Assembly: GCA_019058275.1 (NCBI GenBank)
Contig: JAHLVW010000083.1
Location: 35,570 to 99,569 of the forward strand
DNA: 64,000 nt
DNA from: Candidatus Heimdallarchaeota archaeon
GTDB taxonomy: Archaea > Asgardarchaeota > Heimdallarchaeia > JABLTI01
Direction: 5' to 3'
Shown: in pieces, positions 18,555 through 34,179 of the stretch
Layout of the letters: every line of letters begins with the position of its first letter
How positions within the stretch are numbered: position 1 is the first letter of the stretch
The notes under the pieces: model-generated
Database searches by the model: none
What the model saw: the letters and a program-made list of their open reading frames with translations, nothing else
Told to the model about the DNA's origin: nothing
Translations under genes and position numbers: made by a program

Positions 18555-19520
18555 TTATAGTTTTTTCATAACTAAATTAGCAAAGTCCTTACTATAATTA
18601 ACTATTTTTTCATCAAATCCTGGAAACATTACTTGATAGTAGTCAAAACCTAAGCTATTTAGGTATTCAAATCGTTCAATGAGTTCTTCTGGATATCCTA
18701 CCCATGAACCAGGAGTGTCTTGTGTTATTCTTTCCTTTATAGCTTCCAATGGTCTATTATATCGCTCAGATATATCTTTCAGATAGTTTTCAATTTCCTC
18801 CTCTGATTTTGAAACAAATATAGGAATTCCCACAGCAAACAAGCTTTTACCAATTTCATCGTAATCTCTGCCAACTACCTTACAATGAGCTTTGAGTATT
18901 TCTAATGATCGTTCAAGGTTTGGTCGTAAAACGAAGTTACAATAATCTGCTTGTCTTGCAACAATTTTCAGCAGTATTTTTTTGCCCATACCTCCAATCA
19001 TTATTGGCGGCCATGGTTTCTGAACTGGTTTTGGAGCTGAAAAAGCATCTTTGATTTTATAATATTGACCCTCAAAAGTAACCTTAGCTTCTGTCCATAG
19101 TAATTTTATGATCTCAATAGCTTCCTCCATTTGGTATAACCGTTCTATTGTTGATGGAAACGGGATTCCATAGGCATTATACTCAATTTCTTTCCAACCG
19201 GCACCAAAACCGAAGAATAACCTACCATTGGAAATCATATCTACAGTTGCAGCCATTTTAGCTAGAACAGCTGGATACCTATAAGAATTACAAGTAACTA
19301 GAGTTCCTAATCTAAGTTTTTTAGTTACAGCTGCTAATGCAGAGAGCAATGTCCAAGCTTCCATACAATTCTTGTTTTCAGATTTGTTATCTAAGAAGAA
19401 ATGGTCACTAGTCCAGATGGAATCATAACCTATCTTCTCTGCTTCTAAAGCTATTTTTTCTACTGTTTTATATTCAAATCCCATTTGAGGTTCTATTTGA
19501 ATGCCAAATTTTACAGTCAT
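18555..19520 (-). CDS. LLM-class, probably F420-dependent oxidoreductase
   Basis: GYDSIWTSDHF, RLGTLVTCNSYRYPAVLAKMAATVDMISNGRL, PKPVQKPWPPIMIGG. Confidence 0.93.
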   Translation of the reverse strand: MTVKFGIQIEPQMGFEYKTVEKIALEAEKIGYDSIWTSDHFFLDNKSENKNCMEAWTLLSALAAVTKKLRLGTLVTCNSYRYPAVLAKMAATVDMISNGRLFFGFGAGWKEIEYNAYGIPFPSTIERLYQMEEAIEIIKLLWTEAKVTFEGQYYKIKDAFSAPKPVQKPWPPIMIGGMGKKILLKIVARQADYCNFVLRPNLERSLEILKAHCKVVGRDYDEIGKSLFAVGIPIFVSKSEEEIENYLKDISERYNRPLEAIKERITQDTPGSWVGYPEELIERFEYLNSLGFDYYQVMFPGFDEKIVNYSKDFANLVMKKL

Positions 19521-19623
19521 TTGTTTTCCCTATTTTACCTTTCATTCTCTAGTTATAGTTTTTTTGAATTATTTCAGTAGAAGCTCATAAAGAATTTAAT
19601 TCATAAACAAGTCTTATATTACT

Positions 19624-20724
19624 ATGAAGCAGGATAAACAAGAAATTCGACCTCGTTTTCGAGATTTGGGATATACAGTTGGCGATTTGGAGATAGGAAA
19701 ATTAAACTCCATAACAGATGTTCCAGGTGTAAAAGTTGGACATTGTACAATCATTGAAGGTAATAGTAGATTAATTCCTGGAAAAGGACCTGTGAGAACC
19801 GGTGTAACTGTTATACTTCCTCATGAGAAAAATGTTTACAGAGAAAAAGTCAGAGCAGGTTATTTTGTTTTAAATGGTTATGGAAAAACTACTGGATTAG
19901 TTCAAGTTCAAGAATTAGGTTGTATTGAATCGTATATTGGTCTGACAAATACATTGAGCATACCAGCTGTTACTGATGCATTGATTGATTTTCACATCGA
20001 GGAAAATCCGGACGTAGGTATTTCAACTTCTTCAATTAATGTTGTTGTGGGAGAATGCAATGATGGATTTCTAAATGACATGCAAGGAAGACATGTGAAG
20101 AAAGAACACGTTTTTCATGCTATTGAGAATGCTTCCAGAAATGTTGAAGAAGGTTGTGTTGGAGCAGGTACAGGCATGAGTTTGTTTGGATATAAGGGAG
20201 GAATTGGAACTGCTTCAAGAGTTGTTATAGAAAAAACTGCTGAGTATGTTGTAGGAGTTTTAGTTTTAACCAATTTTGGCCACAGAAAGGATTTAACCAT
20301 TTTAGGAAAGAAGCTGCATAAAGAAGGGATGAAGCAGGTTACCAAAACCCAGCATCATGGTTCTGTTATGGTGATTATTGCTACTGATGCTCCTCTTAAT
20401 AATCGACAGCTTACTCGTCTAGCAAAAAGAGCTCCATTGGGTTTAGCGAGAACAGGAAGTTTTGCTTCGTGGGATTCTGGAGATATTATCATCACTTTTT
20501 CAACTACAAATAGGATTAGACATGATGAAAATGCTGCAACGATAAATATGTCAATAATAAATGAATCAACCAAATTATTCAGTAGCTTTTTGAAAGCAGT
20601 AGTTGAAGCTACTGAGGAAGCAGTGTTAAATTCATTGTGTAAAGCAACTTCAATGACTGGAAGAGACGATAATTATGTGGAAGCCATCTCAATTGAGAAA
20701 ATTAAAGAATTATTAGAATCCTAG
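19624..20724 (+). CDS. dmpA: DmpA/P1 (S58) family aminopeptidase
   Basis: NSITDVPGVKVGH, VRTGVTVILP, ECNDGFLND, EGCVGAGTGM, autoproteolytic G-S site (HGSVMV). Confidence 0.93.
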   Translation: MKQDKQEIRPRFRDLGYTVGDLEIGKLNSITDVPGVKVGHCTIIEGNSRLIPGKGPVRTGVTVILPHEKNVYREKVRAGYFVLNGYGKTTGLVQVQELGCIESYIGLTNTLSIPAVTDALIDFHIEENPDVGISTSSINVVVGECNDGFLNDMQGRHVKKEHVFHAIENASRNVEEGCVGAGTGMSLFGYKGGIGTASRVVIEKTAEYVVGVLVLTNFGHRKDLTILGKKLHKEGMKQVTKTQHHGSVMVIIATDAPLNNRQLTRLAKRAPLGLARTGSFASWDSGDIIITFSTTNRIRHDENAATINMSIINESTKLFSSFLKAVVEATEEAVLNSLCKATSMTGRDDNYVEAISIEKIKELLES

Positions 20725-20727
20725 TGT

Positions 20728-21463
20728 TTAATCTTCTACAACTTTTGACAACTTTCTAGCGGTTTTAATATTATACACCAAATCACTTGGGTTTGGAACC
20801 ATTCCATCCCAATTTGATTCTTCAACGAATCTAATGAAGAATTCATGGAGTTCTTTAGGTTCAAATTCCGCAATTTTAGCGGGAGAATCTAGTCCAGCAT
20901 CATAGTAGAGTCGGGAGAGTTTCTTCTTAACATAACCAAGACGGGTTATATCAGAAAGCTTAACTAATTCTAAAATTGATTCTTCCGGGATAGCTAATTG
21001 CTTAGAAAGATCTTCACGTTGTTTCTTAGTTTTTCCCTTTTCCAACATTTGTTCAACGTTCTTGATTCCTATAGTTGCAAGTTTCTTTACTTGTTCTTGA
21101 TTGACTTTTAGAAATTCTTTAAGCGGAAAAATTCTCTTTGTCTTTTTGGTTCTTTCATCTCTTAAAGCTAGTGTGTTGAAGTAGTTCTTTATTGTCCAAG
21201 AAATGGAAATAATTCATTAAGATATACAAATAACCTTTTGCGGACTGTTTTTTACTTTCAAGTTCAAAAACAAAAGCATCTATATCGTCAGTCGTTACAG
21301 CTTCAAGATTTTTCTTTCTTTTCTCTTGCAAGTAGGACATGAAATCCTTTAGAACATTCACATTTCGATCTACTACATGTGGCTTTTTTCCTTCCCGTTT
21401 CAAGTATTTCCTAAAATCTTCTTCATTCATTAACTTCACAAGCAATACTATTTTATTTTTCAT
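20728..21463 (-). pseudogene. Frameshifted integrase-SAM-like + DUF4332-like (HhH) protein; paralog of 30986-31699
   Basis: ORFs 21155-21463 and 20728-21048 join by a frameshift at a CACAC tract near 21172. The alternative frame reads LALRDERTKKTKRIFPLKEFLKVNQEQVKKLATIGIKNVEQML and matches the intact paralog. Confidence 0.8.
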
Positions 21464-22439
21464 TAATTACTTCTTTGGGAAGATGAATAGCAAAAGTACA
21501 AATGTCATCTCCCTTTAAGACGGATTTAACAAGATCGACTTCTAAGGTTTGCTCGAAAATACCTTCAAAAGGCACTTTGTGCCATCCTCCAGAACAATTA
21601 CAAAAAGTATGTGAAACTTGTTTTTCTTCAGGTTTTTTCAATGAATCTCTAATCCAACCACAATGGCAATAATGATAGCGTTTGGTTTTATCATCTTTGG
21701 CTTCAACGAATTGTTTTATTTGATACGGGATTTTAGAAACATAAACGATATTCCCCTCTCGTACTCCCGCTTCGATAGATGGTTCAGCTTCAACATACTT
21801 ATACTCAGGAGAATTATACCCATATCTATCACCAATGATCTTTTTCCACTTAGCATGCATATGTTGTAAAACAACATCAATATTTCCTGCTTTTTCATAC
21901 ATTCTTTTCAATTTCTTGAAAGATGTAGACTTTGGACTTTTGAAGTGTAAATTATTAGTTAGAATTTTCTTGCAAGTTTTTTCATCAACATTTGCTTCTA
22001 AACAATCCATCATACACTTTGTCCAAGCAGCTTTCTTAACAGTTGATGAGGTTTGTTTAATGGGTCCACCTGCTGCGATGATTTTTTCTTGTAGCTCTTC
22101 ACCTACATATTCATCCAATGTTTCTTCGAATCGCGAAAGCCAAGTTCCTCTTCCTAATAATCGATTGGCATTAGCAATTAAATTATGATTCTCTGTGGCT
22201 TTTCCGTAGCTTTTCATTGCTAAAAGAAAGAGCTTTTTCTTTTTCTTGTCATCTTCCCATTGTTTGAGAAAAGCTTGTAAATCCTTCAAATATGATTTAT
22301 CTATCCCAAGAGATTTCTTTTCAATTTTGAGATAATCATCTATTTTTTTCACAAAAGTTACATATCTTTCTATTGTATTATCTTGCTTATTTTTCGATTT
22401 CATGAATTTTCTTAATTTCTCTTCTTGCATTAGTTTCAC
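21453..22439 (-). CDS. Integrase-SAM-like N-domain fused to a Cys-rich V4R-like (DUF6144-like) domain
   Basis: N-terminal LRKFMKSKNKQDNTIERYV; C-terminal HYCHCGW...FCNCSGG...SVLKGDDICTFAI. Confidence 0.75.
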   Translation of the reverse strand: MKLMQEEKLRKFMKSKNKQDNTIERYVTFVKKIDDYLKIEKKSLGIDKSYLKDLQAFLKQWEDDKKKKKLFLLAMKSYGKATENHNLIANANRLLGRGTWLSRFEETLDEYVGEELQEKIIAAGGPIKQTSSTVKKAAWTKCMMDCLEANVDEKTCKKILTNNLHFKSPKSTSFKKLKRMYEKAGNIDVVLQHMHAKWKKIIGDRYGYNSPEYKYVEAEPSIEAGVREGNIVYVSKIPYQIKQFVEAKDDKTKRYHYCHCGWIRDSLKKPEEKQVSHTFCNCSGGWHKVPFEGIFEQTLEVDLVKSVLKGDDICTFAIHLPKEVINEK

Positions 22440-22440
22440 C

Positions 22441-22944
22441 TTATTTTATGGGAATGAAAAAATCCATTTCTGATTCCTCATTATCCATGCCAAAAAAGCG
22501 CTTAGAATCATATGCTTGTATTTGGTATGAATATGATTCTTTATACTTAGATTTGGGCAACCATTCATGATAGATATAATTATTCGCTTCACGAAATTCT
22601 TTCCCTTTTGCAGAAAAAACAGCATATTTCGTTTTTGGTAGTATTTTACAAAACATTTCTAGAGGTATATTATGAAATCCTTTTACTTCAATACCGATAA
22701 ATACATACCATTTCTTCTCTTCCTTAGCAATTACAGGATCAATATGTACTTCATAAGTTTTTGAGGGGTTAATCAATATCTCTTTGAGTTGTTCTTTCTT
22801 TTCGTCAAGTAATTTAATAAATCGTACCCATAATCTACCAATCTCATTTTCAATGCTCCAACCCTTAATCGAATGAAATGGATCTCCGTAAAAAATGCTG
22901 CCAATTAGCTTTATTTCATCCTTATCAATGATTTTTTGCTTCAT
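22441..22944 (-). CDS. Stand-alone GyrI-like small-molecule-binding protein
   Basis: IGRLWVRF, LPKTKYAVF, YIYHEWLPKSKY, EMDFFIPIK. Confidence 0.88.
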   Translation of the reverse strand: MKQKIIDKDEIKLIGSIFYGDPFHSIKGWSIENEIGRLWVRFIKLLDEKKEQLKEILINPSKTYEVHIDPVIAKEEKKWYVFIGIEVKGFHNIPLEMFCKILPKTKYAVFSAKGKEFREANNYIYHEWLPKSKYKESYSYQIQAYDSKRFFGMDNEESEMDFFIPIK

Positions 22945-23008
22945 ACTTATCTAGACCTCATTAAAAAAAATTATCTTGATAATTTATAACAGTTTAAACA
23001 TCTTCCGC

Positions 23009-23470
23009 TTATAAGCCAAAACCATCATCTGGAAACCAATCTGGCCAACCTGAAATCCATTTTGGAATTTTAGCTTCTTTTACCCTGTCACATACAGGGA
23101 AATATGCCTTTAGGTCAAGTATTGGAGTCGTATCGAAAGCATCTATATTTTTAATCTTGATTAGTCCTTTTTCATGATTTATTTTGAGAATTTCCACTAT
23201 AGTCAAACCTATTGGATTTGGTCTGTATTCAGCCCTAGTAGCAAAAACACCGGTTACTGGAGGGTTTTCCCCATATGGAGGTGTACATTGGATACTTTTT
23301 TTGCTCTTAATATTATCATGTTTATCAGAACACCACAATACATGCATGTGACTAAAATGCTCTAGTTGTTGTAGAGCAGGTCTATATTCTTGAAAGAGTT
23401 CAAGATAGATGCCATCATCCTTTCTATTTACAAAACCTATTGGAGTTACTTTAAAATCTGTTTCAGTCAA
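23009..23470 (-). CDS. tsaA: TsaA/TrmO-family SAM-binding beta-barrel protein (single-domain form)
   Basis: PIGFV, LEHFSHMHVLW, GVFATRAEYRPNPIGLT, IDAFDTTPILDLKAY. Confidence 0.9.
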   Translation of the reverse strand: MTETDFKVTPIGFVNRKDDGIYLELFQEYRPALQQLEHFSHMHVLWCSDKHDNIKSKKSIQCTPPYGENPPVTGVFATRAEYRPNPIGLTIVEILKINHEKGLIKIKNIDAFDTTPILDLKAYFPVCDRVKEAKIPKWISGWPDWFPDDGFGL

Positions 23471-23638
23471 TTTAATTCCTCCAAAAAAGAGCTTCTTTCA
23501 AACATCTGTTTCTATTTAATATACATCGTATTTGGATATTTAAGAGTTTCTATTATCGGTGAATAATATTCATTAGAATTAGGTATTTATGTAATCTGAA
23601 CTGGAGAATATTTGCAATTAGTTGTAGAAAAATGAATG

Positions 23639-24025
23639 TTAGGTTTCTCTTCTTTGTAGAAAAGTATCTAGAAGATGCTTCTTCTGCTGTGCTTCTCGTT
23701 CTTTGATTTCGATTGATTGGGATTCAAGAAAAGCATCATTAATTGATTGTAAGAATTCAATACCCGTTTCGGTAATTCTATAATAACCATGATGGATTTT
23801 ATCAACCAGAGAAGCAGTTTTTAGAGAAGCAAGATGATTTGCTAAAGCTGTTCTACCGAGTTCAACTTCAGACATTAGTTCTTGGAATGTTTTTGTTCCC
23901 TCTAATAAGACTATTAGTATTTTCATTCTATTAGGAGAACCCAAAGCTTTCAAAACAAATATGAGATCATTGAAAGATCGCTGGAGGGATTCATATAATT
24001 CAGAATTGACATTATTATCTGACAT
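23639..24025 (-). CDS. ArsR-like winged-helix transcriptional regulator
   Basis: LKALGSPNRMKIL, LANHLASLKTASLV, YRITETG. Confidence 0.9.
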   Translation of the reverse strand: MSDNNVNSELYESLQRSFNDLIFVLKALGSPNRMKILIVLLEGTKTFQELMSEVELGRTALANHLASLKTASLVDKIHHGYYRITETGIEFLQSINDAFLESQSIEIKEREAQQKKHLLDTFLQRRET

Positions 24026-29203: not shown

Positions 29204-30985
29204 CTAATTGGACGAAGAATGAAATTTATCCTTAAGTTTGCTGATTTTTTCTGCTTCTTCTTCTCCTTTCAAAGTTTTTAATTTTTCAATTGCTTGATCA
29301 AAAACCCATCCTTGTAAAGCACGATGTTCAGGATCTTCATTTAGCAAGGTTTCGAAGTAACCTACTGGATCTGATAATTTCACTACTTTTGTATTATCTT
29401 TGTATAGAAATTCATCTTCAAAAATTACTGGAGTACCCAAGAACGAAAAGAATAGGTTAGGAATACTTTCATGCTCATAAAGACGGTCATTTTCGTAGTA
29501 GAGATGTCCATCAACTATCTTTACAATGTTAATAGCAAATTCAGTATGATACCAATTCCATAGATACAAACCTGTATGTTTTTTCCACTCAAGTCTGTTC
29601 GGTCCTTGTTCCTTAGTTATTCTACCAAGATAATTGAAATACGCTAGACCATATGTTTTGGAGAAGTACTTAAAACCCTTGGGGTTTTCATTCCTTTCAA
29701 GTTCAAAAATTAGCCCATCAGTATTTTCTCTTGAGAATGCTAATTCATTATGAGAGACTAAACGCTCCTTTGCTTTTCCTCTATCTATATACAATCCTTG
29801 AGCATTGGCATTTATCTTTAAAATGCCTTCTTTTCCAGAGTAGACTCCAACCAGACGATCTAGCAATATTACTTTGATATCTTTCTGAGGTGAATTCGCA
29901 TATGGATAACTAGTAGAATCAGGAGATATTTCTTTGGATTTGAAAACTGATTCTAAAATTCTTTGTGGAAGTTCCTTTATGAACCTCAAATTATATTCCT
30001 GATTTGTAAATACAGCAATACCAAAATCATGTTCTGGTGACCAATACATTTCAGAAATAAAACCATAACCACCGCCATTGTGATAGTAAAATTTCGTTCC
30101 GAACGTATCCATTACCTCGGTTCCTAAACCATAATTGTAATTCCCAAAGGGAGTTCTCATTTGGTTAATGTAATCTTTCATTAGGATCTCTTTACCATTT
30201 ACTGAGCCAAGGTTTAGAAGAAATTGCACTAATTTTGCTTGATCCTTTATCGAAAGATGTGCTATCCCACAACCGTATCCACTTGGTTCTACAGGAATTG
30301 TTTTGTAATCACCAAGATATCCTTTAGCTGAATTCTCCATTTTGGATATTTCCTTCGTATCATAATTAAAAGTAATTCCAAGTGGATTTCCAAGCATTTC
30401 TTGGACATATACTGGGTAAGCCTTTCCGGTAATTAACTCGAGGACATAAGCAACCAAGTCCATACCTGCATTACAATATGAAAAGCCATCTCCAACTTTG
30501 AATTTAAGCCAAGAATTATTTATACTCTTTATGTGTTCCTCGAATGAACACTCATCGTAATTGAACACCCCCCCTAATCTTGCTTCTCTAGCAAGACCAG
30601 AGCTGTGTGTTAGTAGATGTTTGAATGTAATTTTCTTATACTGATCTTTACCATATCGACTATTAACCTTGAAATCTGGGTAGTACTTAACTAATTGGTC
30701 ATCTAATTTAACAAGTCCTTTTTGAGCAGCTAATTGAAAAGCAAGAGCAGTTACAGTTTTGCTTGTGGATTGCAGTGAAAACAATGTATCCTTATCGATT
30801 TTCTTACTGTTTCCTTCATCAGTAAAACCAAAACAGCCCATCCAGATTATTTCTTCTTTTGTAACTAATGCTATTGCTAATCCGTGAATGTTATCCTTCT
30901 TCATTTCTTTTGGAATTTCTTTCTTTAATTCAGATCGATTAGTCTCTTTTAGATAATGAATGAGCTCTTTCACAAGTTTACCCAC
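29204..30985 (-). CDS. Beta-lactamase-family serine hydrolase with C-terminal beta-rich extensions
   Basis: FSLQSTSK, LLTHSSG, FSYCNAG, YHNGG. Confidence 0.9.
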   Translation of the reverse strand: MGKLVKELIHYLKETNRSELKKEIPKEMKKDNIHGLAIALVTKEEIIWMGCFGFTDEGNSKKIDKDTLFSLQSTSKTVTALAFQLAAQKGLVKLDDQLVKYYPDFKVNSRYGKDQYKKITFKHLLTHSSGLAREARLGGVFNYDECSFEEHIKSINNSWLKFKVGDGFSYCNAGMDLVAYVLELITGKAYPVYVQEMLGNPLGITFNYDTKEISKMENSAKGYLGDYKTIPVEPSGYGCGIAHLSIKDQAKLVQFLLNLGSVNGKEILMKDYINQMRTPFGNYNYGLGTEVMDTFGTKFYYHNGGGYGFISEMYWSPEHDFGIAVFTNQEYNLRFIKELPQRILESVFKSKEISPDSTSYPYANSPQKDIKVILLDRLVGVYSGKEGILKINANAQGLYIDRGKAKERLVSHNELAFSRENTDGLIFELERNENPKGFKYFSKTYGLAYFNYLGRITKEQGPNRLEWKKHTGLYLWNWYHTEFAINIVKIVDGHLYYENDRLYEHESIPNLFFSFLGTPVIFEDEFLYKDNTKVVKLSDPVGYFETLLNEDPEHRALQGWVFDQAIEKLKTLKGEEEAEKISKLKDKFHSSSN

Positions 30986-31699
30986 CTAGAATTCAATTAT
31001 TCTTAGAATTCTTTTTGAATTCTCAATAGATGATTTAGCATCTGCTAGTATTGGTGCACTGCCATCAAATCCAGTTTTCTTAATGAAATCATCCAGAAAT
31101 GCTATCATCTCTTCTGGATTTTGTGCAGCAATTTTATCAAAAGTATCTAAACCTACCTCAAAATACAAACAAGCTCTTTTTTTCATATGACCAGGACATC
31201 GAGCAAGATTAGCAATTTTAACGAATTTTAATATCTCTTCTATTGGAACTTTTGAACTCTCAGCTAATACTTCTCTTTCCTTCTTATTTCTTCCTACATC
31301 AAGTATTTGACTTGCAGTTTTTATTCCTATCTTTGCTAAGCTCTTTGCGTGTTCTTGGTTTACAGTCATAAAGTTTTTCAGTTTGAATTTTTCTAGTTGA
31401 ATCATTTGCATTATTTGATTACAAGCATATGATAATAGCTTATTTTCTAAGAAACGATAATACTCGCGAATACCAAATAATTCTAGATAAGCGTTTATTT
31501 TATTGCTCTTACTCCAATCAACGAAATCTTGAAGATCCTGAATTGTTAATTCTCCAATTGATTTTCTTATTTTGGTATCAAACAAATATTGTTCGAATCT
31601 CTTAACTCGATTAATATAGGAATTTATTGTGTCTGTAGGTTTTTTCTTCTCTTTCATATAATTAAAAAATCCTGTTTCATCCAATTCAATCACCCTCAC
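30986..31699 (-). CDS. Integrase-SAM-like N-domain + DUF4332-like helix-hairpin-helix protein
   Basis: N-terminal FFNYMKEKKKPTDTINSYINRVKRF...IREYYRFL; C-terminal LAKIGIKTASQIL, ANLARCPG, LYFEVGLDT. Confidence 0.78.
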   Translation of the reverse strand: MRVIELDETGFFNYMKEKKKPTDTINSYINRVKRFEQYLFDTKIRKSIGELTIQDLQDFVDWSKSNKINAYLELFGIREYYRFLENKLLSYACNQIMQMIQLEKFKLKNFMTVNQEHAKSLAKIGIKTASQILDVGRNKKEREVLAESSKVPIEEILKFVKIANLARCPGHMKKRACLYFEVGLDTFDKIAAQNPEEMIAFLDDFIKKTGFDGSAPILADAKSSIENSKRILRIIEF

Positions 31700-32730
31700 T
31701 ATTTTCTTTCTTCCGTTTTCTTGACAACTTCCTTAGGAAGATGTATAGCAAATAAGCATCTTGAATCACCATCCAATATGGTTTCAACAACATCAACATT
31801 AATTGGGTGATCAAGAATTACATCCCATTGGTTCTTATAGTATCCTGCACTGCACTTGCAGAATTTAGATGGAACCTGTATTTCTCCAGTTTTCAATGCT
31901 TCTCGCACCCAAGAGCAATGGCAATAATAGTATTGCTTCATTTTCTCATCAGTTTCTTCTAGGAATTGTTTAGTCATGTAAGGAATTTTCTCTGCGTAAA
32001 CAATGTTTCCCTTTCTCACTCCACGCTCTATTTGAGGATTGTTTTTTACATGATCAATAACTTGATCATCGATTTCTTGAGTATAGAATAGTGTTTTTTC
32101 ATCTCTATGCTTCTCTAATGTCTTAATGAAATCAGCATTTCTTTCCTTTAGGTATTCATCAACATTTTCCGTTTTCAGAAATTTCTCTCTTTGTCTTTTG
32201 TAGCTTTCCTTCGGAATACCATGAAGATTGCTGACAAGAATTTTATGACAAGTTTTCTCATCAAGATTTTCTTCTAAACGTTCCATAACTTTCTTTGTTA
32301 TTACAGGTTTTTTATCAGAAGTCGTTCCTAAAACAGGAAAATCTATACCGGCTAGAATTTGTTTTCCTTTCTCTTCACCCACAGCTTCAAACAATTCTCT
32401 CGATAAATTAACTAGAACATCACTACCATCTAATAGTTCGTATAATGCAATAAGCATATCATTGTTTCCAGAGAAATAACAGTATCTAATCAATGCGTAA
32501 AGATTCTCTTTCTTATTTTTTCCAGTTGCTATCAATTCTTGAGCGAAGTTATGAACATCTTCTTCTTTTGCTGAGTCAATATTTCGTTTAGCTTCTAGTA
32601 AAAAGTCATCGAATTCTTTTACAACCTCTATCGCTTTTTCTACTATCTCTTCACTATATTCTCTTTTTTCACAAAATTTCTTGAATCCTTCAATGTCCAT
32701 TATTATACCTTCTTTTTTTGGTAGCTTCAA
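31699..32730 (-). CDS. Integrase-SAM-like N-domain + V4R-like (DUF6144-like) Cys-rich domain (likely start ATG 32700)
   Basis: MDIEGFKKF...; YYCHCSW...FCKCSAG...TILDGDSRCLFAIHLP; paralog of 21453-22439. Confidence 0.78.
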   Translation of the reverse strand: MKLPKKEGIIMDIEGFKKFCEKREYSEEIVEKAIEVVKEFDDFLLEAKRNIDSAKEEDVHNFAQELIATGKNKKENLYALIRYCYFSGNNDMLIALYELLDGSDVLVNLSRELFEAVGEEKGKQILAGIDFPVLGTTSDKKPVITKKVMERLEENLDEKTCHKILVSNLHGIPKESYKRQREKFLKTENVDEYLKERNADFIKTLEKHRDEKTLFYTQEIDDQVIDHVKNNPQIERGVRKGNIVYAEKIPYMTKQFLEETDEKMKQYYYCHCSWVREALKTGEIQVPSKFCKCSAGYYKNQWDVILDHPINVDVVETILDGDSRCLFAIHLPKEVVKKTEERK

Positions 32731-32907: not shown

Positions 32908-34179
32908 GTGCAGAAGATGAAAATAGAAGAAAAGCTTGTTAAAACACTTATTCGACAGGGTGGTCCATCAGTATTTTCTTGGTCTGAAATCTACTTGAAT
33001 CCATACCAAGGCTGCTATCACAACTGTGTTTATTGTGACGGAAAAAGTGAACATTATCATATGCATGATGATTTTGGTGATAGAATTTTTGTTAAGAAAA
33101 ATGCTCCTGCTCTTTTCGAGAAGTTTCTGAAAAACAAGAGTTTTCAGCCAGTTCATGAGAAAGAACAATCTGCGATCGATGAATTCTTTCCGTCCTTAAA
33201 GGCAATTCCTAATTCTAAGGTTTTACCTAAATCAATTATTACTATTGGTGGTGGTGTCTGTGATTCCTATCAGCAAGCTGAAGAAACGGTCAAAATAACT
33301 AGAAAGTTACTCGAGATCGTTTATAATTACCAATTTCCTCTTTGGATTCTCACTAAAAATGATCTTGTTCTAAGAGATATTGATTTGATCAAGAAAATCA
33401 ACAAAGAAACATATGCTTGTGTTAATTTTACTATAACGCTAAGTGATGAGAAAGCTCAAAAGATCTTTGAACCTCGAGCAAGCACAACTTCTGAGCGTTT
33501 TGAAGCAATCCGAATTCTTCGTAAGGAGGAAATTCATTCTGGGGTATATTGTTATCCATCTTTACCGTTCATCGGTAATACCGATAAGAATATCCAGGAA
33601 ATTTATCAACGTGCAAAAAGGGTTGGTGCGGAATTTATCTATTGTGATGGATTAACCTTGAAACCTGGTCGTAGTAAGAATGAATTCATGCAAACATTGA
33701 GACAATATTATCCGGACCTCTATCCAAAATACGAGCTACTTTATAGTAATAACAACAAATATGGTCATTTGGATCAAGAACAATTTGAAGATCTTGGGCT
33801 TATGCGGTCATTGCATAGAGGTTACAAATTTGGATATGAAATGGAATTAGATTATGCTGCAAAACGATTTGTACCTGAAGGAAGATTGACTGTCAATCTT
33901 CAACTATCAGAATTATTACGTAGAATTGTTTATCTAAAAGGTAGCATATTGTATGAAGCAAGATATGAAGTTAATGCATTTAACAATGCTGCCAAATTGG
34001 TTGAGAATTCAGGTAGGGACTTTGGGAAACTTAGAGGGGATGAATTTGCGGATATCCCAACCAATATACAAGTCAAAGATGTGATTAAGGAGTTCGTTTT
34101 GACTGGAAAATCTGCTTATCTTAAGGATTTGGAGAAACGTACTTATGATTACTTAGTTGATAAATATTATACGGAATAG
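32908..34179 (+). CDS. Radical SAM protein of the SPL-like/Rv2578c-type group, with a PIP-box match and a PolX-like C-terminal helical domain
   Basis: LNPYQGCYHNCVYC, ILTKNDLVLRDID, FEPRAST; QSAIDEFF; C-terminal AFNNAAKLVE...IKEFVLTGKS. Confidence 0.85.
   Translation: MQKMKIEEKLVKTLIRQGGPSVFSWSEIYLNPYQGCYHNCVYCDGKSEHYHMHDDFGDRIFVKKNAPALFEKFLKNKSFQPVHEKEQSAIDEFFPSLKAIPNSKVLPKSIITIGGGVCDSYQQAEETVKITRKLLEIVYNYQFPLWILTKNDLVLRDIDLIKKINKETYACVNFTITLSDEKAQKIFEPRASTTSERFEAIRILRKEEIHSGVYCYPSLPFIGNTDKNIQEIYQRAKRVGAEFIYCDGLTLKPGRSKNEFMQTLRQYYPDLYPKYELLYSNNNKYGHLDQEQFEDLGLMRSLHRGYKFGYEMELDYAAKRFVPEGRLTVNLQLSELLRRIVYLKGSILYEARYEVNAFNNAAKLVENSGRDFGKLRGDEFADIPTNIQVKDVIKEFVLTGKSAYLKDLEKRTYDYLVDKYYTE

Follow-up and report, generated by a model that had tools for sequence, protein, structure and literature searches.

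The ALOG proteins are plant transcription factors with an exapted recombinase DNA-binding domain (PMC3537659). MsvR, a redox regulator of methanogens, combines a helix-turn-helix (HTH) domain with a V4R domain, and its conserved cysteines modulate DNA binding with the redox state (PMC3729527). A cluster of three conserved cysteines is common to V4R, ATC hydrolase and MetOD1, the last of which is similar to HNOB, V4R and ATC hydrolase (PMC5847659). With these systems we compared two gene pairs, A1-B1 and A2-B2, that lie in a stretch of 64,000 nucleotides (hereafter the window; GenBank assembly GCA_019058275.1, contig JAHLVW010000083.1, positions 35,570 to 99,569) in the 4.1 Mb genome of a Heimdall-group Asgard archaeon (genome G000). 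All four proteins begin with the core-binding (SAM-like) domain of tyrosine recombinases, and the catalytic domain is absent. The A proteins continue into DUF6144, which is reasonably called V4R-like, and the B proteins into DUF4332, which is made of helix-hairpin-helix (HhH) modules. A and B are probably two separate, widespread families and no obligate pair, because they usually live apart in other genomes. The genes are as follows, in window coordinates.

31699..32730, minus strand: A1, open reading frame (ORF) as called; the gene is probably 31699..32700
A1 parts: core-binding (SAM-like) domain, residues 1-91 approximately, then the DUF6144 domain (V4R/H-NOX/Bet3-like), residues 92-333 approximately, with the CHC...CxCSxG...CxF site
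30986..31699, minus strand: B1, ORF as called; the gene is probably 30986..31684
B1 parts: core-binding (SAM-like) domain, residues 1-98, then DUF4332, two HhH modules, residues 99-232
21453..22439, minus strand: A2, paralogue of A1 (Pfam DUF6144, 49.9 bits)
21155..21463, minus strand: N-terminal piece of B2, core-binding domain, ORF of 102 residues (Phage_int_SAM_1, 28.3 bits)
20728..21048, minus strand, frame open back to 21213: C-terminal piece of B2, DUF4332, in a different frame

Alignments of homologues together with the DNA place the probable start of A1 at the ATG at 32700, which gives 333 residues, and that of B1 at the TTG at 31684, which gives 232 residues. This TTG has a GGTGA motif ahead of it and lies 15 nucleotides past the A1 stop codon, while the A2 and B2 reading frames overlap by 11 nucleotides. 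Over 333 columns, A1 shares 37% identity with A2 (E 6e-63). B1 is 31% identical to the N-terminal piece of B2 over its N-terminal 84 residues (against the 21155..21463 reading frame), and 38% identical to the C-terminal piece over its C-terminal 133 residues (against the frame 20728..21213). A2 is a fast-evolving paralogue of A1 that is confined to the window's genus. A third paralogue, A3 (332 residues, 35% identical to A1), is encoded elsewhere in G000 (C117:24768-25763; L004:1450-2448); it has no B neighbour, and the gene downstream of it encodes a GNAT acetyltransferase (PF12746).

The N-terminal domains of A1, A2, B1 and B2, of about 90 residues each, align with a mean column identity of 49%, and the same relationship is seen across both families. 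A profile of the B N-domain matches the N-terminus of the A protein at all of 80 A loci from other genomes (median E 2e-7), a profile of 80 diverse B proteins matches A1, A2 and A3 at E 1e-9 to 2e-13, and the A profile in turn matches B N-domains at E 1e-8 to 1e-15. In G000 this N-domain subtype is limited to A1, A2, A3, B1 and B2, plus a weaker match in one 355-residue protein, which is a genuine tyrosine recombinase (PF00589 at E 1.8e-27). A profile search of longer proteins found the subtype in A and B members only; this is a weak test, since its candidates were chosen by shared words.

The folds were recognised through an exhaustive structural search (VIA-align), which yielded the Z values given here, with AlphaFold2 models of A1 (predicted local distance difference test, pLDDT, 95.3; predicted template modelling score, pTM, 0.89) and B1 (pLDDT 97.1, pTM 0.90). 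Residues 1-92 of A1 match the core-binding domains of XerA, XerD and IntI with Z 10.6-12.2, and residues 1-99 of B1 match them with Z 9.6-11.8, XerA being the best at 11.8. The root mean square deviation (rmsd) from XerA and XerD is 1.6-2.5 Å over 83-89 residues, and a wider set that includes Cre and lambda Int gives Z 9-12 and rmsd 1.6-3 Å. ALOG, Ndc10, MrpR and SroF rank lower in these lists: the ALOG structure 8p5q matches A1 and B1 at Z 5.8-7.0, and 3sqi, 8a0a and 9rd5 are also present. Foldseek against the PDB matched neither model at E <=0.001. At the level of sequence, Pfam Phage_int_SAM_1 (PF02899) scores over its cut-off of 22.3 for B1 (25.1 bits) and B2 (28.3 bits), the NCBIfam XerD model matches the B N-terminus, the B family profile matches XerA at E 5.5e-4, and the SAM_1 and SAM_4 models are matched by 22-30 of 62 aligned A homologues (E up to 1). 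The catalytic domain PF00589 has no match in A1, A2, B1 or B2, nor in the 62 A homologues. Neither A nor B can be a recombinase.

The likeness to XerA, XerC, XerD and IntI thus lies in the first 90-100 residues of A and B, with a four- to five-helix fold. The difference is that A and B lack the R-H-R-Y domain and have a sensor-like or an HhH domain instead, and that most A N-domains are acidic. ALOG, Ndc10, MrpR and SroF are precedents for a recombinase N-domain in a DNA-binding regulatory role other than recombination. The ALOG proteins differ in being eukaryotic, derived from a retroposon and equipped with a zinc-ribbon insert, and in MrpR and SroF the recombinase body is still complete; in the prokaryotic A and B, the N-domain is fused to domains unrelated to it.

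In the A proteins, the C-terminal part is recognised by Pfam DUF6144 (PF19641) with 30.5 bits for A1 and 49.9 bits for A2, at a cut-off of 28.8, and the model is matched by all 62 aligned homologues. Its most prominent feature is the motif C261-H262-C263 ... F281-C282-x-C284-S285-x-G287 ... C316-x-F318 (A1 numbering), which is invariant or nearly so among these homologues: C261, C282 and C316 are invariant, and H262, C263 and C284 are conserved in at least 90%. This conserved cluster of five cysteines and one histidine suggests a metal or redox site. In the structural comparison, A1 residues 92/125-334 match Bet3, H-NOX and PoxR/DmpR with Z 5.5-6.4 and rmsd 4.6-6 Å over 128-173 residues, and the Bet3 matches include an Asgard TRAPPC3. 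A local Foldseek match relates A1 to the V4R protein MJ1460 (2osd; rmsd 1.2 Å over 39 columns). Weak profile matches among the 62 homologues go to MetOD1 (27 proteins, best E 0.003), ATC_hydrolase (6 proteins, best E 0.00099) and V4R (6 proteins, best E 0.013), and one Atlas cluster contains both DUF6144 and MetOD1. The fold scores by themselves are moderate, and the label V4R-like is reasonable at the level of the superfamily.

A resembles the group of PoxR/MopR/DmpR, MetOD1, ATC hydrolase, H-NOX and Bet3 in fold, at moderate scores, over some 130-170 residues, and a cysteine cluster is a feature of the group. These relatives are distant: V4R, MetOD1 and ATC hydrolase have a cluster of three cysteines (PMC5847659), whereas A has five cysteines and a histidine, and the AAA+/HTH or REC context of these proteins is missing from A. 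MsvR resembles A in the fusion of a nucleic-acid-binding-type domain to a V4R-superfamily domain with conserved cysteines. It differs in that A has an N-terminal, acidic recombinase core-binding fold and no HTH, and in that the predicted sensor of A is DUF6144 (CxC...CxC...C) and not a canonical V4R. By analogy, MsvR and the sensor domains of PoxR/MopR would be the closest counterparts of A. DUF6144 also occurs by itself in G000: a protein of 143 residues (C35; L001:1498-1929) consists of this domain without the N-domain and keeps the CxC...CxCSxGW...C signature, with CFC replacing CHC.

The C-terminal part of the B proteins belongs to Pfam DUF4332 (PF14229; 64.6 bits for B1 and 38.9 bits for the C-terminal piece of B2, cut-off 23.2). 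Structural comparison resolves it into two HhH modules. Residues 99-165 of B1 resemble the N-terminal HhH domain of RAD51 and RAD51C, and residues 146-231 resemble the (HhH)2 domains of NusA AR1/AR2, Hef, FAAP24 and domain 5 of PolQ; overall, these matches have Z 5-7.7 and rmsd 1.5-3.1 Å. The B family profile matches the HhH region of PolQ at E 0.003, and B1 carries a net charge of +6 in its HhH part. In their (HhH)2-type modules the B proteins are therefore like NusA AR1/AR2, Hef/XPF, FAAP24, the RAD51 N-domain and domain 5 of Hel308/PolQ. They differ from these in that a core-binding domain precedes the HhH modules, with no nuclease, helicase or recombinase core. The original prediction, made from the letters of the DNA alone, had described a mutually similar N-terminal domain of the recombinase core-binding type in all four proteins, with no catalytic domain behind it, a YCHC..FCxCSxG..CxF motif in a V4R-like end of A, and HhH repeats at the end of B. 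The comparisons above bear this out, the V4R-like end of A at the level of the superfamily and with moderate fold scores; the motif is real and conserved across the 62 homologues.

How far do the two families travel together? Family A is present in 243 of 400 Asgard genomes (about 60%), usually with 1-5 copies each, and comprises at least 71 clusters at 90% identity. Titled GTDB records place it also in Bathyarchaeia, Chloroflexota, WOR-3 and others, closed chromosomes included. Family B is patchier, with 70 of the 400 Asgard genomes; a representative search gave 162 proteins at E <=1e-10, and most of those among the matches listed are full-length. We surveyed the 80 A loci from other genomes with flanks of 4 kb, 68 of them having at least 800 nucleotides downstream. 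A B (DUF4332) gene lies within 4 kb in only two of the 80, and both of these are A1 orthologues from the window's genus (83% identical). Seen from the side of B, A adjoins B in genus g1 only among the best 30 B loci in the class. Family f20 has no B in any of its 135 genomes, 82 of which have A. A1 orthologues with 72-74% identity (L014-L016) have no adjoining B, and close relatives of B1 in Bathyarchaeota stand without an A neighbour. Of five closed genomes that encode A, three have no full B, and in a Chloroflexota chromosome A and B are 850 kb apart. Two Thor genomes have B at 3.3-5 kb from A. No A-B fusion protein was seen among the architectures searched. The claim of a dedicated and conserved A-B pair, with which the original prediction had tied these observations together, is not supported by this survey, in which adjacency is found in the window's genus only; the prediction itself had named such a lack of conserved adjacency in other genomes as evidence against the pair.

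Because full-length A proteins are encoded in closed bacterial and non-Asgard archaeal chromosomes, family A appears to have been transferred between domains. These proteins have 41-50% identity and come from L060 (CP070764.1, Chloroflexota), L067 (CP070705.1, WOR-3) and L020 (OY970072.1, Bathyarchaeota); the odd taxon labels of several records may reflect mis-binning.

Within the genus, the A1-B1 pair is kept in G000, G085, G087 and G089, and the A2-B2 pair in G000, G087, G081 and G084. In G081 (contig C135; L122:4025-4630), an ORF of 201 residues without a Pfam match stands between the A2 and B2 orthologues. The B tree has B1 and B2 in its two deepest halves, each nested among B genes without an A neighbour, and the hypothesis that the A-adjacent B genes form one clade is rejected by an approximately unbiased (AU) test with p 5.7e-30, the group having been named after the first tree was seen. 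The A2 branch is too long to be placed in the A tree. An old duplication of one A-B pair can therefore be rejected, since B1 and B2 fall into separate deep clades of B genes that are free of A. Because the two belong to deeply separate B subfamilies, the juxtaposition would have arisen twice: either a B gene was placed directly behind A on two occasions in this genus, or a B that was already there was exchanged for another. The pattern suggests a functional connection between A and B in this lineage; still, it amounts to two events in one genus.

The second pair is interrupted in the window. Alignment with the intact orthologues of two sister species (L121:4360-5097 and L122:3298-4011) reveals that two nucleotides are missing between positions 21169 and 21168, and the N-terminal piece of B2 ends at a premature TGA that results from the frameshift. 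As judged from the sequence, B2 is likely a pseudogene in this genome, or else a split gene. We also considered a homopolymer sequencing error and disfavour it: because the 2-nucleotide deletion sits in non-repetitive sequence, a true mutation is more likely. The reported duplication of a diverged gene pair, in the same order at two places, is thus real as far as the location of both pairs is concerned; the break in B2 had been overlooked.

Three genes neighbour the two pairs.

29204..30985, minus strand: serine hydrolase of the class-C beta-lactamase fold, 593 residues (Pfam Beta-lactamase, E 1e-49)
22441..22944, minus strand: GyrI-like/Cass2 small-molecule-binding protein (Pfam Cass2, E 6.8e-16; GyrI-like, E 1e-13)
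32908..34179, plus strand: radical SAM protein (PA0069/Rv2578c-like), divergent from A1, with scores far below the NCBIfam cut-offs

The hydrolase is probably in the same operon as A1 and B1, because its start codon directly abuts the stop codon of B1. The GyrI-like gene is located directly upstream of A2 on the same strand, an order that is kept in G087 and G081. The region around pair 2 (window 18555-24025) is made up of genes of the small-molecule or detoxification type, with the order again kept in G087 and G081: it encodes a luciferase-like monooxygenase, an S58/DmpA peptidase, the GyrI/Cass2-like binder, a TrmO-N-like protein and an ArsR-type regulator. Elsewhere the neighbours of A vary and are mostly of the redox or detoxification type, such as a nitroreductase, a short-chain dehydrogenase/reductase (SDR) with a 95-residue protein, a methyltransferase or a GNAT protein. 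Two loci labelled Thorarchaeia (L125:5124-7926 and L126:4040-6832) have a cluster of SDR, divergent 95-residue protein, A and nitroreductase; this cluster is present in 13-21 of the 80 A loci, mostly of related genomes. From the hydrolase, the GyrI-like protein and the radical SAM protein, a setting of toxin or genotoxin stress had been proposed. The three neighbours are indeed present, but they are generic, the radical SAM assignment is far below its cut-off, and the proposal has nothing beyond these neighbours to draw on.

We hypothesize that the window contains two paralogous operons, each of which would join a member of family A to a member of the separate family B, both families being built on a tyrosine-recombinase core-binding domain that lost its catalytic domain. 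A would be a V4R-type sensor that responds to a metal, to the redox state or to a small hydrophobic ligand, and its core-binding-like domain would act as an output or interaction module. B would be a non-catalytic DNA-binding protein of net basic charge. In this genus the two would be co-transcribed with detoxification-type enzymes, namely the hydrolase for pair 1 and the GyrI-like binder for pair 2. Taken together, this combination of independent families, a V4R-type sensor, a non-catalytic DNA binder and local co-expression with detoxification-type enzymes is the explanation we prefer, and we give it an even chance of being right. What the comparisons show is the identity of the domains, the distribution of both families, the absence of a conserved linkage and the break in B2; that A senses, that B binds DNA and that the two communicate at all is what we infer.

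Several points weigh against this explanation. The N-domains of A have a median net charge of -5.5, with 53 of the 62 homologues at or below zero (A1 has -8 and A3 has -7), and so acidic a domain, typical of A, does not fit a DNA-binding output for A. A2 is the outlier with a net charge of +10, and the B N-domains are mildly basic (median +3). The C-domain of A matches the V4R-like folds with only moderate scores (Z about 6, rmsd about 5 Å), its Foldseek E values are all above 0.2, and a profile of A against the PDB returned nothing at E up to 10. In addition, two independent, operon-tight juxtapositions argue for a real A-B link in the genus, and this the preferred explanation leaves unaccounted for.

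The A and B domain combinations are visible in precomputed Pfam annotations, and we found no description of them in the literature searched, in which DUF6144 is mentioned in no paper and DUF4332 is named once, in passing. They represent a recombinase core-binding domain exapted in prokaryotes and fused to a sensor-type domain on the one side and to HhH modules on the other. For eukaryotes, the searched literature describes a similar reuse in ALOG and Ndc10, where the domain serves regulation on its own and the recombinase body is missing.

To our knowledge, regulation in Asgard archaea is almost unstudied. If A does sense redox state, metal or a ligand, it would be a new class of signalling protein for these organisms. 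With models of such confidence (pLDDT 95-97), it is straightforward to express the proteins, analyse their metal content and test whether they bind DNA.

Could A instead be a transcription factor in its own right? In such a one-component arrangement, the core-binding domain would be the output and DUF6144 the sensor, so that A would be a prokaryotic counterpart of the plant ALOG factors and a functional analogue of MsvR, with B an unrelated DNA binder. Precedent exists for both halves: the core-binding fold is known to bind DNA and was exapted for a transcription factor in ALOG (8p5q; PMC3537659), and V4R sensors typically come joined to a DNA-binding domain, MsvR being an example (PMC3729527). 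The 1-5 copies per genome and the variable enzyme neighbours are also what local regulators have. We regard this alternative as unlikely, however, because the acidic character of the N-domain in 53 of 62 homologues disfavours A as a plain transcription factor; moreover, the pTM of 0.89 suggests that in the model the N-domain packs onto the sensor domain.

A second alternative takes the gene order at face value. Here A and B would form a dedicated sensor/effector pair, joined through the core-binding-like domain, in which B would bind DNA under the control of A, according to the ligand, metal or redox state that A senses. The operon-tight spacing (15 nucleotides for A1-B1, an 11-nucleotide overlap for A2/B2), the conservation of both pairs in several species of the genus and the double origin of the pairing from different B subfamilies speak for it. 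So do the N-domains, which within the genome are each other's closest relatives and are typically acidic in A and basic in B, and the loose linkage over 3-5 kb in the two Thor genomes. Against this, there is no adjacency in 78 of 80 A loci, nor in any locus outside the genus among the 30 best B loci. The 82 genomes of f20 that have A have no B, the A1 orthologues L014-L016 do without an adjoining B, and no A-B fusion protein has come to light among the architectures searched. Even within the genus, B2 is broken in G000 and the 201-residue gene separates A2 from B2 in G081, while the charge of +10 on the A2 N-domain shows that charge complementarity is not general. A dedicated pair is thus distinctly unlikely. 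A looser form, in which the core-binding domain would be a new prokaryotic module for interaction or DNA binding and A and B would hetero-associate via their N-domains, signal as a split system mostly in trans, and have been brought into one operon twice here, appears doubtful to just the same degree. If split signalling were true, it would be an unrecognised regulatory system that is widespread in Asgard archaea, Bathyarchaeia and Chloroflexota; a new two-component-like system is not established by our finding.

A third alternative assigns catalysis or cofactor transport to A. DUF6144 would be an enzyme or a cofactor carrier, similar to ATC hydrolase, that acts with the redox neighbours, and the core-binding-like domain would be a structural or oligomerisation cap. 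This would agree with the acidic N-domain, which fits a role away from DNA, and with the ATC_hydrolase matches in six of the 62 members (best E 0.00099). Galperin et al. suggested an activity related to that of ATC hydrolase for the related MetOD1 (PMC5847659). A nitroreductase and an SDR recur beside A, although this synteny comes from related Thor genomes and is absent from the window. The enzyme proposal comes without a model of catalytic residues, and the relatives V4R, H-NOX and Bet3 bind ligands and are not enzymes; we therefore consider it rather improbable.

Lastly, the A and B genes might be functionless, decayed remnants of an integrase or mobile-element cassette, fused by chance to downstream reading frames, as the frameshift in B2 and the 'integron-associated' Cass2 binder next to A2 might suggest, but this is close to refuted by the full-length conservation of both families across phyla and even domains, by the compact, confident models (pLDDT 95-97) and by the lack of any catalytic recombinase remnant in A1, A2, B1, B2 and the 62 A homologues.

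Three unusual members or loci of family B deserve mention. In another Heimdall genus (G040, contig C67; L124:2284-3299), a full B gene is followed 2 nucleotides later by an ORF of 100 residues that comprises the core-binding domain only (PF02899, E 1.2e-6), and next to it lies an 83-residue ORF without a match; as far as its sequence tells, the 100-residue frame may represent either another broken B or a protein that is just the N-domain. The Bathyarchaeota chromosome CP070730.1 has a second B copy with one in-frame TAG (G404:C1:1674836-1675534), which may mark a pseudogene, result from a sequencing error or be a recoded stop. In a B relative of 347 residues (P0174), the core-binding domain and DUF4332 are followed, in the same chain, by a C-terminal DinB_2/DUF1706 domain; thiol-dependent detoxification enzymes are among the members of the DinB superfamily.

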